Part shown: positions 4,932 through 58,760 of the stretch, piece after piece
Numbering within the stretch: the stretch's first letter is position 1
Layout of the letters: each line of letters starts with the position of its first letter
Assembly (NCBI GenBank): GCA_000004985.1
Contig: GG738849.1
Strand: one strand, 5' to 3'
DNA length: 64,000 bases
From: Naegleria gruberi
Taxonomy: Eukaryota
Program-made: the position numbers and the translations under genes
Notes under the pieces: generated by a model
Database searches by the model: none
The model's input: the letters and a program-made list of their open reading frames with translations, nothing else
What the model was told of the DNA's origin: nothing

Positions 4932-7454
4932 TTAGAAAGTTTGTTGGTGATCTTCTGCAAATATGCCAATTTTTCTCTTTACTCTGTTTAATAGAGCCTC
5001 TTCAATAGAGCTTGTTCCATTGACATAAAGTTCTTCTACCCATAATATTTCATTTACCCAAGGAGAAATAATTTGATTGTCTATAAGATATTCCACAATT
5101 TCCAATATTTCCATCTCTAGTTTTTGATTAATGCTTACTCGGTAAAGAATTTGCAAATGTTGCACCAGTTTTGGAGCTAGTTCAGCCATATTTCTTCTGT
5201 CTATTAAACAAGTGGAAAAGGCGTTAACATATAATTCGTCTAACTTGTCAATATGAGTTGAACCTTGTTTAAAGTTAGTAAAGCATTCTATTGTTTCAAA
5301 CATAGCATTGATTGATTCATTCAAAATTACAAGAGATCTCTCACCACCATTAAGAGCAACATCGTTTCTAATAATCCTATTACATGCCCAAAAAGCTTGC
5401 GACATTTTATCCACGATTATATTAGGAATCCAAAGCATGTCATCTTCAAAATCTTCCATATCAGCAATCTCCTTAATAATTATTGGCAAAATGTAATCAT
5501 AGATAAAATCCTTCTTTCCTCCTTCATTGATAGAATTATTAGTCAACATGTCCATGGAGAGATGAGTGTGTAATATTCCAATTTCACTCAAAGTTCCAAG
5601 CAATGTGAATAGTGAATGATATTGTGTGTATGCAAATGGATCTCCAATCTTAATGAGAATTCGTATTAGATTGGCAAGAAATGAATAGGAGTGTTTGTTG
5701 AAAGCTTCAAGTAGAGCTTTTCTTTCTATCCATCTGCAAATTTCTATCAACACCACCGTAAGTGGCACAATCATTGAATTAAACAGTTCCTGTATGCTGT
5801 AGCTTGACATTTCTTCTGTCTTTTCCTTAATATAGGAAAGAAGTTTCTCACATAGTACATTATCATTAATTAATTGAAATGCGTTTCCGATTAAGAGGAG
5901 GCATTGATTAATATTCTTCTTATGTAGGTTTGTTTTTTCTTCCTCGTTTTCAACTGTTAAATATTCCATCGTTTCATTCACACACACAGTTTCGAATAAA
6001 TTGTTAATCTTGAATTTCAAACCTTCCAAAATTGATTCACTAATTTCTGATTTGCTAATATTCAGACTGTTAGTAATGCCTTTCAACAAGGCACAATAAT
6101 CTGTGATATCATTACTACTCAATTCATGAGATTTAATGATACAATCAAGTAAATCATCAGAATAATAATTAGTTTTTGAAAAGAAAAGACCAAGGGCCTT
6201 CTTGGTGACTAATCTTATATCCCTATTCTCAGAGGAGAGTAATTTCTTACAAATTTGAATAATTGCAGAGACTTGATTCTTAACATTTTGAGTTTCAATC
6301 GAAGATAAATCAATTAGAGAAATACTGTCGAGAGCTGTTATGATAGATCTTTTTGCCAATAAATCTCCACTCTCCAACTCACTCTGTTGTTGCAAAGTGT
6401 CAAATATGAAATCCTTAAAGAGAGCTGCTACGTAAGATTTGTTTTTAAAGGCAGAAGGATCTTGTTTACAATCATAGTTCAATATATTACTAATCATTCG
6501 TAATATTTTGTGTTTGATTACCCAAACAGTCTTTCCATAATTATTTCTAATTCTTGGAAATAAATTTTCAGATATAATGGTAGAATCATCTTTGGTGTTC
6601 TTGATTTGTGCCAAATCATTCTCCATCATATCTAGAATGCATTTTGCAAAATTAATTGACAAGTGAAACAATTTTCCAAGTAATGTGAATAATTTTTTTG
6701 TAACATTTGTCTTCTTCTTTGTAGAACTAGCCTCAGCAAAGTTATAGAGACAAAAAATGAAATATCGTGCCAGTAAAAGACCGAAAGCCTGATTTTTGTA
6801 ATAGTTTTTAGCCTTAAGTTCATAATCATCCTCTGTAGGTGTTGTTATATATTCAATAAATTGATTCCAATAATAAAAGAGATCGGTCAATAACCAACTA
6901 TTTGCTCCTGATAAATAACTTTCAGGATTTTCTTTCAACAATTGATTCTTTCTTTCCAAAAAGTAATTAGAAACCGTTAACAATAGAAAACATGGTGGAA
7001 ATTCAGTAAATCCGACATGTGAAATTGGTTTTCTACACTTTAAAACTTCAGCATGCACCTTTACAATAAAATGTAAAACAACTTTTTGCCAATTCTCCAA
7101 ATTATCAATTCCACATTCGAATGGTTCCACTTCGGCACCTTTCCTCACCTCTTGATAAATATGGTTTGCACAACGAAAGAATTGGGGTATAATTCTCTCC
7201 TCTGCATAATCCATAAATTGACAAAACTCTCTCACTTCACAATTCATCCAATTACACGAAATGGCTGTGGAAAGGTAGTAATAAATTAGAATAATCATTT
7301 TCATGCAAGCTTGTTGCTCAGTATCCGAATCATATACTTCCGAATATACTTTCAACTCATTTTCATCACACAACTTTCCTANNNNNNNNNNNNNNNNNNN
7401 NNNNNNNNNNNNNNNNNNNNNNNNNNNNNNNAAACACGATTTGTTACAAGACAA
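4932..7454 (-). CDS. Large alpha-helical protein of unknown function. At least 840 codons, single ORF. Extreme N-terminus interrupted by an assembly gap.
   Basis: Continuous 2.5-kb minus-strand ORF with coding-like composition. The N run at 7382..7431 lies 7 codons after the nominal start, so the real 5' end is undetermined. No confidently recognisable domain. Confidence 0.55.
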   Translation of the reverse strand: MSCNKSCXXXXXXXXXXXXXXXXXXGKLCDENELKVYSEVYDSDTEQQACMKMIILIYYYLSTAISCNWMNCEVREFCQFMDYAEERIIPQFFRCANHIYQEVRKGAEVEPFECGIDNLENWQKVVLHFIVKVHAEVLKCRKPISHVGFTEFPPCFLLLTVSNYFLERKNQLLKENPESYLSGANSWLLTDLFYYWNQFIEYITTPTEDDYELKAKNYYKNQAFGLLLARYFIFCLYNFAEASSTKKKTNVTKKLFTLLGKLFHLSINFAKCILDMMENDLAQIKNTKDDSTIISENLFPRIRNNYGKTVWVIKHKILRMISNILNYDCKQDPSAFKNKSYVAALFKDFIFDTLQQQSELESGDLLAKRSIITALDSISLIDLSSIETQNVKNQVSAIIQICKKLLSSENRDIRLVTKKALGLFFSKTNYYSDDLLDCIIKSHELSSNDITDYCALLKGITNSLNISKSEISESILEGLKFKINNLFETVCVNETMEYLTVENEEEKTNLHKKNINQCLLLIGNAFQLINDNVLCEKLLSYIKEKTEEMSSYSIQELFNSMIVPLTVVLIEICRWIERKALLEAFNKHSYSFLANLIRILIKIGDPFAYTQYHSLFTLLGTLSEIGILHTHLSMDMLTNNSINEGGKKDFIYDYILPIIIKEIADMEDFEDDMLWIPNIIVDKMSQAFWACNRIIRNDVALNGGERSLVILNESINAMFETIECFTNFKQGSTHIDKLDELYVNAFSTCLIDRRNMAELAPKLVQHLQILYRVSINQKLEMEILEIVEYLIDNQIISPWVNEILWVEELYVNGTSSIEEALLNRVKRKIGIFAEDHQQTF
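7382..7431. other. Assembly gap: 50 consecutive N.
   Basis: Literal n characters in the sequence. Interrupts the 5' end of the 4932..7454 CDS. Indicates a draft assembly, which is relevant to the apparent frameshift at ~56745. Confidence 0.99.
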
Positions 7455-52735: not shown

Positions 52736-55393
52736 ATGGTTTGGTATCTTTAGAGATGCGATCTTGGCACTTTTCAATCATATGAGCACATGGCTTATCT
52801 TCAACACCTTCTGTTTTCTCAATATGAATGGATTGATATTGTTCAAAATATTCAAGGGCCTCATTAAAGTGACCTTGTTTAAAGCTTTCAATTCCCTTAT
52901 TGTAAATTCTCCACTTGTCCACTTGCTCTTTTTGCTGCAATTCATACATCCCTAAGTAATTATGATATTCACAAATGAAAAAACAATATCAACTTACATT
53001 CATCCATGTTAACTTGTTTTGAATCTCCAACCTCATAAATTGGTGTCTTTTCACCACTCTTTGATTTTCTATTGGACATAATTGGTTCAAATGTATTTTC
53101 ATTCACTAATTTCTTCCATGATACCAATCTAGTCGAGTGAACATCAGCAATTTCCTGGTAAACATGATCTGTGATTAAAAAGTTAACATTAAGCTTGGAA
53201 GTTAAACTGATTAAAAATTCAAGATTTTCTTGATAACTGCCTAAAATTGAGAAGGTTTTAACATCTCTAGTACCAACGTTACCAACTTTGTTTTGCTGTG
53301 AAACCATGGCACAAAGGAAAGATATGGATGAAGAACATTTCAATTTTTGTAATTGACCTTGAAGTTGTGTCATGCAGAATAAACCTTTTTCTTCTGCTTT
53401 GGCGCTTTCTGATGTAGCATTAAAACTAAGAATGATGGTACTCTTCTCAAAATTGCCAACCAATGCATTGTTTAAACTTGCATGTCTTTGAATTACTGTG
53501 AAAATTTCAGTAAGCACGACAGTAATATCATGTTCTTTCAATTCATTAAGTAGTTCGTTGAGCCCTTCGAAATATATCATTGCACTCACCACCCTTCTCT
53601 TTTCCAGACCTAATTTAAAAATGGAATTATGAAAACCAGAAGAATGAGCTCCAATCTTGCTATGATGAGATGACTTTGAGAAGGAAAGAGATGTAAACTT
53701 GTTACTCGAATGATGTTTAGATTCTTCGTGTGAACGTGTGTCATTACTATCCAATTTGCTCAACAAGTGAGGTGGAAGGAAACTTCTAAATAATTTCATC
53801 TTTTTCACCATGAACAATACATGTTCTTGGATTTCAGAAACTTCCTTCAATGGTGATGCAACCTTCAAGCCCTCAATTTCGTCCAATTGCATTTCTGAAA
53901 TGAATTCAAATTGGGTCATTAACTTTTTGAAAGGTGTAACAATTCTTGTACTGAACCAAATACCTATCAAAATTGCAGAGATTGTAATAATGACACTCAC
54001 AATAACGGCAACTATCACTGCAATTACAATGGAAGATATGTAGTTCCACTGTGGCACTGCAAAGATTATCATCCAATTCAACAATGTTGGAGTGCACAAT
54101 CTATAGAGTCCAACATAATAAGAACTAACTGTTGTGAATTTGAAAGTTGAACATTTCATAGATTTGAGATCATTCCCTAAAGATTCATAAACAGCAGATC
54201 CAATATCTCTCACTTGTGGAATATCAAAGTTCTTAACAGTCTTTCTTGTTTCCTTTCCACTTTTATCCCATTCAGAAACTGGAATATCAGGGTAGTTGGC
54301 TAATTATTATTGAAACAGTTTAAAACAGGAATATTAAAAAAACATACTTGCAATAATAGCGTCAGTTTTGATCTCAATAACAACTGCCAGTGAGTTCATA
54401 ATATCACTTGTAAATTCAAGCAAGTATTGGGATAGAGAGTGAACTGTCAGATCAATAGCAAAATACCAATCAAAAGTGGATGAGCCAGGAACTGAGTGAA
54501 CACTTACACATGAGAACCAAACCCACAGTGGATATCCTGAATCTGTGTAAGAGTCAGAAAATCCGGTTGAGTTGAGTAAGTTTTGGGCTTGTTCCACTTC
54601 AGTTGAAAGATCAAATGTTGGTTTAATCTTATCCCATGTTGGACCTTTTCTAACACAGCTAGTGTGAGAGGAGTCAAAATCACAAGTTTTGTAATAAGCT
54701 CCTGTTGAATTAATCACAAATAATGATAGATACATTTCAGGTGATTTAGCAGCTCTAGATTGACTGCTAGTTATACCCTTATTACCTCCCAATACATCTC
54801 CAAAATATGAATTGATGAAAAGACCATTTATGTAAGCTTCCTGTGATTTATAGGTCATGAAGGTCTTGTCAATTAACCACTCGTCACGATTATAATAATC
54901 CATATCATTCCACACAGAGTTCCTTACAGTTTCAGTGGCCATTGCTACCTGTTGTTAGGAATTTCCACATGTTTGTCAATTTTACACTAAATTCAAACCG
55001 TCAACAACAAACCTTATTCATGGTAGAGTCTATAAATTCAGTCATACTAGAGAATTGAGACTCCATTAAACTATTACTCACAGATGTAACACTCCCAGCA
55101 AAACTAGATACCCAAACTATGGTTAATAAGATTACAGAAACCACCAAAACAAACAATAATAAGAGTATTAAGCTTGATTTGATGGTTATTTTCTGAGAGG
55201 AACGCTTATTTTGTTGTTTGATTTGAGCACCATCATCTGACGAATTATCATCAATTATTGGTTCCAAAGGAGAAACAGCACTAATAGTAAATCCATCATT
55301 TGATTCGGTAAGGTGATTTTTGGATGTTGGTGTCCTATTTGTTGTATATACAGATACATGTGGGGGCAATGGTGTAACCTTAGAAGCGACCAT
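52725..55393 (-). CDS. Receptor-like protein. Cytoplasmic N-terminus, TM1, ~330-aa extracellular sensor-like domain, TM2, degenerate class-III nucleotidyl-cyclase homology domain, C-terminal TPR-like tail. Four exons: 55393..55013, 54948..54348, 54299..52998, 52951..52725.
   Basis: TM1 LILLLLFVLVVSVILLTIVWV and TM2 IVIAVIVAVIVSVIITISAILIGIWF. CHD-like region RRVVSAMIYFEGLNEL…ALVGNFEKSTIILSF…FLCAMVSQQNKVGNVGTRDVKTFSILGSYQENLEFLISLTSKLNVNFLITDHVYQEI follows the β1 / β2-β3 / αD-β7 pattern (FxDIxGFT → YFEGLNEL, GD → GN, GDTVNxASR → GSYQENLEF). Introns of 64, 48 and 46 nt, all GT-AG, phase-checked. Last exon …MYELQQKEQVDKWRIYNKGIESFKQGHFNEALEYFEQYQ… (TPR-like). Confidence 0.6.
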
Positions 55394-55880: not shown

Positions 55881-58027
55881 TTATTGCATGGAACAAGTCT
55901 TCTTTTCACTATTCTTTACAACTTGCTTAAATGAAGGATCATTCCACACACAGATGGACTTGACCATCACTTCGTTCAGCTCCCTGATTCCAGTACCTTT
56001 CAGAGCGCTTGTTTCGGCAAGTAATTTTCCCTGTTCAAAACTTTGAATCTTTTTATGTTTTTTGATAAGTAATTCTCTGGTAAAGATTGGATCATCTCTA
56101 AAATCAATTTTGGTGCAAACAAGTGCAATTGGAGTTGTTGAACAATGATGCCTTAGTTCATTATCCATAGATGATTCTGAACAACAACTGAAACTCAAAA
56201 AGAATAAATCAGTTTGGGGATAAGAAAGTGGACGTAATCTGTGTATGATAGATAAATTCATTAAGTTCCAAAATTTAACAATATTATTGCTTTTTGATAA
56301 ATAAATAACTTCCCTAGGGAAGAAGGATAAATTACAGCACGCAGGGGGAGAAGTTCTTTTGCTTCCTTCCACATCATAGCCAACATTCAACCCAAAACAA
56401 CATCTGTCATTTACTTGAAGTTGTTGGTACATTGAAGAACAAGTGGTAATTGATACTTTGAACACCCTGTTTTTCTCTTGGTCTAATAAAGACTTGTATT
56501 GTTAATAAACTTCTATCTATAATAAATCATGAAAAAAAATCATACAACACCCTCAGTTGGTAGGAGGGGGTTTAAGACGGCCAAAAAGTGTAATTTATCC
56601 TTCTTCCCTTACCTATCAAAATCTTTTGAAAGGTCAATCAAAAATGTTTTGAATATTTTTTAAAATTACTAACCTTCTTGTCCTATGGTATCCCACAATC
56701 CAATACTTAAAGTTTTTCCATCATAGAAAAAATTGTATTGCTATCAAAAATTGTTGGTATATATTCGTGTGGAAAGGAATCGGTAGTTAGAGATATCCAA
56801 AGACATGTTTTACCCACAGCTCCATCACCTTATTTAAAATAATTAATTGGCATTCAATATTGAATAATAAATGATGACACTCACCAACTTGAACAATTTT
56901 AAAAGAATTTGCTGAACTGTTTTTCAAATTGTACTTGAGAATTTCTTCTTTAGGAACGTAGATATCACTTCCACATTGTGACAAACCCTCAATATAACTG
57001 GTTCTATTATGGTGATCTCTGTTGGCTCATTAACTTGCTTCTTTTTGTCAATCTTGTGATAAGTACCACCAAATACAAAGTAATTCATAGCAATACTATC
57101 ATCTTCATTGGTCGCTTGGAATGGAACAGTTGTATGAAAGACGGGTCCAACATCTTGGCTTGTAAAAGTTTGAGAAAGTGAGTGAGTGTGGCTTACATCC
57201 CAACCATTCTTGATATTAATTAAATCAATATAGATACAATCCAAATGGTCAATTCTATCATTACAACCTCCAATGGAGTAAAGTCTTTTACCATTTTCTG
57301 ATTTTTCCAACACCAATGAATGACCAAATCTTGGAGCAAAGCCATCAAGTTCAGAAATTAATACCTCCGATTGACAAGTACCCTCTTTCACATCCAGAGT
57401 AGACAATTTAATCTTTACAAAATCTTTAACAAGATCAGTAGCCGATTTACCACCCAAAATATACCAATCACCAGTTTCTTCATCCAAAACACTAGCATGA
57501 TAATATCTTCCCATAAGTTCAATGCTCAATTCCATCAATTTCCATTCTCTACTCTTCAAATTGAAAATAAACAATTCATTCGATGGGAAACTGTTGTTAT
57601 CATCATACCCACCAAACACAACCAAATAATCACCATAAATAGTTGCTGATTGACCATAACGTGGAGTGATAATCTCATCACCACTAGGCTCCAGTAATCC
57701 CCACTCAAAAGTATCAAATCGATACGACCAAACATCATTATGAAAACCATTTGATTTCCCGCCAAAAATTACCATCTCATCACTACAATCATTCGATTTT
57801 CTTTTCACTAGACACGAGGAGTGGAAGTTACGAGCACTTGGTCCCCTATTATGTATTGTCTTGTTTTCCCACTTTTGTGAGGAAACATCCACTTGAATGA
57901 GATCGTTTACAAGTAGTTCGGAATTGACAAAGCCTCCGAAAAGATAAACTTTATCGTTATGAAAGATACCACTGTGACCAACACGAGAGGTTAATTGACC
58001 GAGGGGCAACGAAGATGTTAATAACAT
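55881..58027 (-). CDS. Putative fusion gene: N-terminal Kelch beta-propeller (~347 aa) plus a C-terminal Rho/Rac-family small GTPase with a CAAX box (CSMQ). Five exons: 58027..56987, 56933..56885, 56828..56674, 56622..56613 (10-nt microexon), 56238..55881. Exon 3 carries an apparent 1-nt frameshift.
   Basis: Kelch ORF from ATG 58027 (…VYLFGGF…DVWSYRF…LVVFGGY…WYILGG…LYSIGG…). The Rho-frame segment upstream of the G1 exon has no ATG between an in-frame TAA and the GTGAGT donor, so it cannot initiate on its own. A 53-nt GTTTGT…AAG intron joins …EPVILR to [17 protein letters not shown]|DGAVGKTCL… Then GQE|DFD|[11 protein letters not shown] via the microexon ATTTTGATAG (introns of 51 and 374 nt). 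Downstream …[10 protein letters not shown]…ETSALKG…CSMQ*. Rho exon 3 is 155 nt where phase requires 156. See the finding on the frameshift. Confidence 0.5.
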
Positions 58028-58105: not shown

Positions 58106-58760
58106 ATGACAACAACTCTTGTACAAGACCCTATTGTTTGGGTTGACATGGAGGTAAGATAATAGCCACTGACCACAATTCACACAATTAATTCTAAATA
58201 GATGACAGGATTAGATATTGATTCCGATCACATTTTGGAAATTGCAGTCATTATTACTGATGGTAATTTAAATATTATTGCACAATTGGATTCATTGATT
58301 GTTCATCAGAGTGACTCTGTTTTAGATAATATGAATGATTGGTGTAAACAGCATCATGGTGATAGTGGTTTGACTGCTGCCGTTCGAAAGAGCTCATTCT
58401 CCATTCAGCAAGTTGAGGATACAGTCTTGGATTTTGTTAAACACTATGTTGCATCGGAGAGATTGGCTCCATTGGCTGGTAACAGTGTTTATTGTGATAG
58501 ATTATTTATGAAGTATGTTAATTTCTTTATTATTTTGTTAATAATATTTTAATTATTTTAGAAAGGAAATGAAAAGATTAGATGAATATTTGCATTATAG
58601 AATTATTGATGTTTCTTCAATTAAAGAGCTTGCAAGAAGATGGTCACCTGAAACTCTTACCAAGGTTGTAAAGACTGGAGCCCATAGAGCACTTGATGAT
58701 ATCAAAGAATCTATTGAAGAATTGAAAGTTTACAAAAAGCATCTATTTAAATTGGAATAA
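58106..58760 (+). CDS. Oligoribonuclease (REXO2/Orn, DEDDh 3'-5' exonuclease). Three exons: 58106..58153, 58202..58512, 58562..58760.
   Basis: …PIVWVDME|[21 protein letters not shown]…[12 protein letters not shown]|[27 protein letters not shown]… is collinear with Orn (DxE…, H-x4-D). Introns of 48 nt (GTAAGA…ATAG) and 49 nt (GTATGT…TTAG). Confidence 0.85.

Follow-up and report, generated by a model that had tools for sequence, protein, structure and literature searches.

Results

We analyzed a 64,000-nt stretch of Naegleria gruberi DNA (assembly GCA_000004985.1, contig GG738849.1; hereafter, the window), in which the G+C content was 31–37% throughout, and focused on the locus between 58027 and 55881, where a Kelch reading frame is followed by the exons of a Rho/Rac-like GTPase. 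Features are on the minus strand unless stated otherwise. An earlier note, made from the letters alone, had proposed that a 53-nt intron joins the two parts into a novel fusion of a Kelch propeller with a prenylated Rho. Our results indicate instead that the locus is very probably a copy, decayed in the recent past, of a Naegleria Kelch–F-box–Rac gene ending in a CAAX box.

The Kelch open reading frame (ORF) comprises 367 codons (58027–56924), 347 of which precede the donor of the proposed 53-nt intron, as had been counted before. A database search showed that the 367-amino-acid (aa) product (P0001) was 100% identical to the N. gruberi 'predicted protein' XP_002681858.1 (EFC49114.1; NAEGRDRAFT_63109), which is carried by an 850-kb scaffold. 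Pfam assigned the ORF to Kelch families with a best E=1.9e-43. No BTB domain was found in the Kelch ORF by Pfam, which reported Kelch only. The region encoding the Kelch beta-propeller extends from the ATG at 58027 to the Thr codon of 'NEPT' (57020–58027), the last codon homologous to intact relatives. When family members were aligned onto the locus by tblastn, the Kelch part was covered from 58027 to approximately 57005, and the propeller was 40–49% identical to those of relatives P0002–P0007.

The Rho motifs listed in the earlier note (G1, switch II, TKID, SALK and CSMQ) were all present. The Rho segments contain the G1 P-loop GDGAVGKT at 56826–56806, switch I YIPTIFD with Thr35, the G3 motif WDTIGQE with Ile in place of Ala59, an RLRPLSYP-type switch II signature, the Rho insert, G4 TKID and G5 SALK. 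They end in the CAAX box CSMQ followed by a stop codon (55895–55881), which corresponds to the family consensus KKCxxQ and is a candidate prenylation site as judged from its sequence. After repair of a frameshift described below, the Rho reconstruction matched Pfam Ras with E=1.2e-27, and its closest solved structure was that of human Rac1 (phmmer, E=5.5e-44). No stop interrupts the Rho frame between 57026 and the GTGAGT donor at 56884, and no Met occurs in it upstream of G1. That is, the observation that the Rho segments have no initiation codon of their own was correct; they lack one because they form the 3' part of a single Kelch-led gene.

Next to this locus we placed its relatives. A database search with the reconstructed fusion retrieved many proteins bearing both Kelch and Ras-family domains, including N. 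fowleri FDP41_007326 (P0002, 731 aa), three N. lovaniensis paralogues of 749–767 aa (C9374_001827, C9374_004444 and C9374_009358), and proteins from Acrasis kona, Willaertia magna and environmental sequences. According to the sequences and Pfam, the order in this family is an N-terminal Kelch, an F-box (approximately aa 350–470), a helical linker of approximately 110 residues, Rho and a C-terminal KKCxxQ. Pfam matches of the family included Kelch_FKB95, and precomputed annotations added Beta-prop_FBX42. The relatives matched Pfam F-box or F-box-like with E=2.9e-5 to 1.7e-11, and their central F-box motif, LNDDI[FY]R..LSFL...L.LVSK.LRI, was absent from the window locus in all frames. The earlier note had held that Kelch and Rho belong together and had suggested examining orthologues for contiguity. 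All intact relatives carry Kelch and Rho-CAAX within one protein, consistent with one ancestral gene; however, the two parts are not contiguous in them, as the F-box and linker lie between. The window copy thus has the homologous Kelch, the pre-Rho linker motif, and the shared introns and microexon of the family, but not its F-box and helical linker.

Two features of the family were observed on the side. In most members (Naegleria, Acrasis and Willaertia; P0002, P0003, P0004, P0020 and P0041), the catalytic Gln61 is replaced by Pro in the sequence DTAGPE, which suggests that the G domain is atypical, with hydrolysis weak or absent. The window remnant retains Gln61 (DTIGQE, 56692–56674), and a relative's locus, L006, has DTAGQA, also with Gln. 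Meanwhile, FDP41_007326 as annotated in N. fowleri (L001, 4919–5303) ends in '...SSDSKRSV' without the CxxQ that is present in all other full-length members; the 3' end may be annotated wrongly, or the lipid anchor may truly have been lost.

The boundary between the Kelch and Rho parts was delimited with XP_002668324.1 (EFC35580.1; P0121) of N. gruberi, an incomplete model whose N-terminus is cut off by the end of its 7,486-nt contig. P0121 and P0001 were 98% identical (327/335), differing in the Kelch part by six substitutions and a 2-aa indel, and the identity ended exactly at 'KKKQVNEPT'. After NEPT, P0121 runs on as 'FNIEVFDNVMNDDIFRLVLSF...', which is the F-box, and the Kelch-frame reading of the window showed no homology to P0121 past this point. 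The breakpoint therefore lies between 57020 and 57005. The segment between the two anchor points comprises 108–115 codons in six intact relatives. When nine relatives were searched against the whole window by tblastn, the Kelch and Rho parts were matched, and no remnant of the F-box or helical linker was found in any frame.

On the other side of the breakpoint, the Rho-frame sequence from 57026 aligned with 'AEKHYLERTTRIEGLT...FLPKSKILAY...FKVVQVGDGA' of P0015 (50% identity over 86 columns, E=2e-24), and its N. lovaniensis counterpart reads 'SDKNSKNLTSFIETIS..KLYTREEIMAYPNEL..SSKIVIVG'; the homology spans the whole length of the remnant. This remnant of the pre-Rho linker exon (56885–57026) is in the Rho frame, is homologous to the linker of the relatives and contains no Met. 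Its nucleotides also form, in the other frame, the tail of the Kelch ORF (56924–57019), which ends with the TGA at 56926–56924. Within 57005–57026, the Kelch frame gives way to the Rho frame, with 108–115 codons (F-box and helical linker) missing and the frame changed. We interpret the direct Kelch–Rho junction as the scar of a frame-changing deletion, not as a designed fusion.

The proposed 53-nt intron (56934–56986) does have GT..AG ends in phase, as the earlier note had stated, but we judged it to be spurious, as its sequence appears to be ancestral linker coding. The family linker motif '[YF]T.[ED]E[IV]L.YP' is present in the Rho frame of the window and lies within the proposed intron. Because the Rho-frame linker aligns through this segment, splicing would excise conserved coding residues. 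The candidate was 64% A+T, equal to the Kelch coding sequence, compared with 78–80% for the three supported introns of the locus; its lower A+T content had been noticed previously. In addition, its donor, GTTTGT, was found in 0 of 17 reconstructed family-intron donors. Over the last approximately 170 nt of the Kelch ORF plus tail there are 38 in-phase GT..AG pairs, the candidate being one of these, and the existence of such a pair is therefore no more than expected by chance and carries no weight. In the proposed Kelch exon, the last 11 codons read the ancestral linker out of frame.

The spliced Kelch–Rho model did not hold as an ORF. Its five exons (1041+49+155+10+358) add up to 1,613 nt, a length not divisible by three, and the translation terminates as '...SMMEKL*' inside the G1/switch-I exon. 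There is no uninterrupted Rho reading frame with an initiation codon, given the lack of Met and the frameshift and premature stop in the G1 exon. The exon that carries G1, switch I and G3 (56674–56828) is frameshifted between approximately 56742 and 56727. The spacing from FD to IGLW is 38 nt in the window copy, compared with 42 nt in Rac1 and most aligned relatives. Frame B reads 'QYNFFYDGK' and thereby already regains the conserved Tyr of 'FD.Y' upstream of a T6 run; therefore, the frameshift is most likely next to FD, at about 56742–56738, rather than in the T6 run. A homopolymer miscount in the T6 run was considered as the cause and found less likely, given this Tyr and the spacing. We also rejected an extra intron bypassing the frameshift, because the two reading frames abut within approximately 15 nt and leave no room for it.

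The last Rho exon (55881–56238) encodes the Rho insert, TKID, SALK and CSMQ, ends with TAA at 55883–55881, and is open over 119 codons; it contains two in-frame deletions. The first removes 7 aa equivalent to Rac1 'VRAKWYP' (Rac1 residues ~93–99), the KWxPE end of α3. The second removes 9 aa equivalent to Rac1 'KEIGAVKYL', covering β6 before the G5 SAx, and the HMMER (phmmer) alignment of the Rho remnant to Rac1 ends at this deletion. Both were unique to the window copy in a comparison with eight family members and Rac1, and again with 10 sequences in a second alignment; the copy thus lacks a complete G-domain core (α3 with KWxPE, and β6). The earlier note had mentioned one frameshift and had raised the possibility of a decaying pseudogene. 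The frameshift was found, together with these further lesions. We rejected 'LVCTK' as a sign of decay, as it is a subfamily feature that curated Rac sequences of N. gruberi have as well (Table S8 of Herman et al. 2021, BMC Biol 19:142, PMC8296547).

The gene structures of relatives were reconstructed from their loci by spliced alignment and compared with the window copy. The 56-nt intron GTGAGT..AAG (56829–56884; 79% AT) interrupts, in phase 1, the Gly codon before DGAVGKT; its removal is required to join this Gly to DGAVGKT, and an intron in L006 agrees with it in position and phase (VVLIG/NAAIGKT, the slash marking the exon boundary here and below). The 51-nt intron GTTAGT..AAAAG (56623–56673; phase 1; 80% AT) has an identical position in L005, an environmental contig that encodes a near-identical counterpart of XP_002672362.1 as curated for N. 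gruberi (Table S8). It is followed by the 10-nt microexon ATTTTGATAG (56613–56622), which gives (D)FD(R) of switch II, and then by the 374-nt intron GTAAGG..ACACAG (56239–56612), which splits the first Arg codon of RLRP in phase 2 and matches introns of L005 and of L003 (N. lovaniensis C9374_004444) in position and phase. L005 contains a homologous 10-nt exon, ATTATGATAG, at 2130–2139 (GAAG/gtaagt...ag/ATTATGATAG) with the same phase-1/phase-2 boundaries; it is one base apart from ATTTTGATAG (Tyr to Phe). Our comparison supports the microexon and its two flanking introns, which the earlier note had proposed, as genuine features of the gene.

Small exons recurred in the same region of relatives. 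In L005, an N. gruberi-like contig, switch II is encoded as ...CTATG/gtaagt..48../GGATACTGCTGGTCCTGAAG/gtaagt..43../ATTATGATAG/gtaatt..42../ATTACGTCCATTG/gtaagt..42../TCCTACCC, with exons of 20, 10 and 13 nt (2067–2086, 2130–2139 and 2182–2194). L003 has exons of 4 nt (ATCG, 5021–5024) and 6 nt (ATTAAG, 5077–5082), with GTAAGT after each. These tiny exons are separated by introns of 42–53 nt with near-consensus GTAAGT donors, with four introns falling within approximately 54 nt of coding sequence. The reconstructed structures indicate that switch II in the Kelch–F-box–Rac family is encoded via arrays of very small exons (4, 6, 10, 13 and 20 nt). A search of the available literature found no description of Naegleria microexons or of switch-II small-exon arrays.

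The 374-nt intron is unusually long because a 294-bp element (56316–56609, not assigned to a strand) is inserted in it. The insertion has perfect 21-bp terminal inverted repeats (AGGGAAGAAGGATAAATTACA / TGTAATTTATCCTTCTTCCCT), with two matches in the inverted-repeat search against 0.02 expected, resembling a miniature inverted-repeat transposable element (MITE). The intron minus the element is 80 nt and 78% A+T. A 7-mer, AGGGAAG, is repeated right after the 3' repeat, and the target-site duplication is ambiguous. Neither the window nor JGI metagenome contigs yielded a second copy of the element.

The locus is flanked by two further coding regions. On the plus strand, a divergent RNase T/oligoribonuclease-like gene (58202–58760) consists of two ORF pieces (58202–58552 and 58569–58760), each matching Pfam RNase_T and presumably separated by a short intron; it starts approximately 175 nt from the Kelch ATG, and the two genes have this short intergenic region in common. 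On the minus strand, a 130-aa ORF (55001–55393) that lies downstream of the Rho remnant and contains a hydrophobic stretch gave a sole, sub-threshold Pfam match to Anoctamin (E=0.005).

Discussion

We propose the following course for the decay of this gene copy. A deletion of approximately 325–345 nt right after the 'KKKQVNEPT' codons would have changed the frame and taken out both the F-box and the helical linker. The Kelch ORF now reads 32 out-of-frame codons to the TGA at 56924, giving the annotated 367-aa, Kelch-only XP_002681858.1, and the downstream linker remnant and Rho exons are left without a start codon. The Rho part carries further lesions, namely the frameshift after switch I, the 7-aa α3 deletion and the 9-aa β6 deletion, and the 294-bp inverted-repeat element is inserted in the last intron. 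The ancestral exon structure is retained, down to the 10-nt switch-II microexon and the introns on either side of it. Disabling lesions relative to intact homologues, together with the kept introns, point to an unprocessed pseudogene. No fusion protein is expected from the assembled sequence, because the copy is frameshifted and has lost core G-domain segments; the predicted product of the locus is, at most, the Kelch part alone followed by a nonsense tail.

The inactivation is probably recent. The Rho remnant was 42–52% identical to relatives over aligned columns, which is within the range of intact paralogue pairs (38–59%; the orthologues of N. fowleri and N. lovaniensis, in comparison, are 73% identical), and a 98%-identical twin exists. 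Both the gene and its domain combinations were already on record, and the claim of a novel Kelch–prenylated Rho fusion is not supported. In their curation of Ras superfamily members from N. gruberi and N. fowleri (PMC8296547), Herman et al. note in Additional file 4 that F-box+Rho and GTPase+Kelch combinations occur in Naegleria, suggest GTPase-dependent ubiquitination, and report more than 80 Rho genes in the genome with birth-and-death evolution. In Additional file 10 (Table S8), N. gruberi Rac genes, including XP_002668324.1, are labelled 'Kelch, F-box', and XP_002681858.1 is entered as Rac, 'putative pseudogene: yes', with the label 'BTB'. The locus is therefore already known as a putative pseudogene and not a new fusion, in line with the caveat in the earlier note. 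Our search of the available literature found no dedicated paper on the Kelch–F-box–Rho architecture, only the supplement of PMC8296547.

Some observations weigh against our interpretation. Residue-level decay is not visible in the Rho remnant, as its similarity to relatives is that seen among intact paralogues and its last exon is still open. This normal conservation fits a very recent inactivation; however, it would also fit a sequence or assembly error. In addition, the 'BTB' label in Table S8 conflicts with Pfam, which finds Kelch only, and the table is thus not error-free. The same label is also attached to other Kelch-bearing Rac entries, including the corrected XP_002672362.1 and XP_002670347.1 models, and is probably a labelling slip.

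The alternative that fares best concerns the origin of the lesioned copy. It would be one allele of a heterozygous locus, and the XP_002668324.1 contig would carry the intact allele, assembled apart because of the indels. We regard this as possible, though doubtful: the copies are 98% identical at the protein level and the intact one sits on a short orphan contig, but these data would be accounted for by a recent segmental duplication too. Such an origin is compatible with a decayed copy and differs from our explanation on this point only. It is very unlikely that the real gene is intact and that its lesions arose by mis-assembly or collapse of two approximately 98%-identical copies, one of which survives as the 7,486-nt contig. 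The near-identical copy with an intact Kelch-to-F-box junction does lie on a small unplaced contig, and the residue conservation of the Rho remnant is normal. However, all five independent lesions (the frame-changing deletion, the two in-frame ones, the frameshift and the inserted element) would need to be artefacts; the six substitutions and the 2-aa Kelch indel mark two distinct sequences, not one collapsed locus; and the junction lies in unique sequence within the 850-kb scaffold.

That the gene is functional, with the 53-nt intron joining the Kelch exon in phase to Rho, an F-box-less Kelch–Rho–CAAX fusion as the product and the frameshift a sequencing error, is hardly credible: the in-phase GT..AG with its translation 'EPVILR/YNLKNSS..VQVG/DGAVGKT', the genuineness of the three other introns and microexon, and the undegraded Rho residues speak for it, but the intron would remove conserved linker downstream of an 'exon' that is itself an out-of-frame linker reading, its A+T content is that of coding sequence, its donor is absent from the 17 family donors, it is one of 38 in-phase pairs, the frameshift is best placed outside the homopolymer with FD-to-IGLW 4 nt short of 42 nt, the α3/KWxPE and β6 deletions would cripple the G domain, and specialists list XP_002681858.1 as a putative pseudogene (PMC8296547). 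We consider it extremely improbable, too, that the frameshift near 56742–56727 is a reference error and that a weak scar intron is used to give an F-box-less Kelch–Rho–CAAX protein; the candidate introns are the 53-nt one and a 47-nt GTTAAT..GAG option that spares the conserved linker motif. If true, the product would be a membrane-anchored 'receptor without ligase' and could be a dominant-negative decoy for substrates of its 98%-identical twin, which is competent for the SCF (Skp1–cullin–F-box) ligase.

As a decayed gene copy, the locus itself has little significance and represents ordinary gene decay. It nevertheless illustrates cleanly how the deletion of a domain, with a change of frame, may pass for a novel fusion that uses a short intron. 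The parent family, with the order Kelch–F-box–Rho-CAAX, can be seen as a still uncharacterized RhoBTB counterpart, and to date only a supplement mentions it. Its domain content suggests an SCF-type ubiquitin-ligase substrate receptor, in which the N-terminal six-blade-type Kelch propeller would bind the substrate and the central F-box would dock to Skp1. The C-terminal Rho/Rac-like domain with its farnesylatable CxxQ would provide a membrane anchor and perhaps nucleotide-dependent gating. The window copy could not join an SCF complex, because it has no F-box.

The window copy is most directly compared with the Naegleria Kelch/F-box 'Rac' genes (XP_002668324.1, XP_002672610.1, XP_002677266.1, FDP41_007326 and the C9374 paralogues), with which it has homologous Kelch, linker, Rho and CxxQ, as well as intron positions and switch-II microexons in common. 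Unlike them, it has neither an F-box nor a helical linker, switches frame where Kelch meets Rho, carries the G1-exon frameshift and has lost KWxPE and β6; it has kept the Gln61 that is Pro in most family members. The repaired Rho resembles human Rac1 (PDB 3su8, 1mh1) in G1, Thr35, DxxG, Gln61, the Rho insert and TKxD; in contrast to Rac1, the window copy lacks the 'VRAKWYP' and 'KEIGAVKYL' equivalents and a start codon, and its frame is interrupted.

By analogy, we infer that the parent family is a functional counterpart of the RhoBTB–CUL3 system. Like RhoBTB proteins (Rho–BTB–BTB, CUL3 adaptors), it fuses an atypical Rho to an adaptor module of a cullin-RING ligase; however, the module is an F-box (SCF/CUL1) and not BTB (CUL3), the Rho is C-terminal and bears a CAAX box, and Kelch is the presumed substrate binder. 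The GTPase-linked ubiquitination suggested by this likeness is what Additional file 4 of PMC8296547 put forward for GTPase fusions of Naegleria. Plant F-box–Kelch (FBK) proteins and human FBXO42 likewise combine an F-box and a Kelch propeller in one polypeptide. In classical FBK proteins, the F-box is N-terminal, upstream of Kelch, and there is no GTPase domain. The parent family, in contrast, has Kelch first and a CAAX-bearing Rho at the end, and the window copy has no F-box. Finally, the amoebozoan proteins represented by Arcella intermedia A0A6B2KYL9 (P0011) and a eukprot transcript (P0008) also combine Rho, Kelch and a cullin-adaptor domain; they differ in their Rho–Kelch–BTB order with an N-terminal Rho, and represent an independent arrangement in another family.

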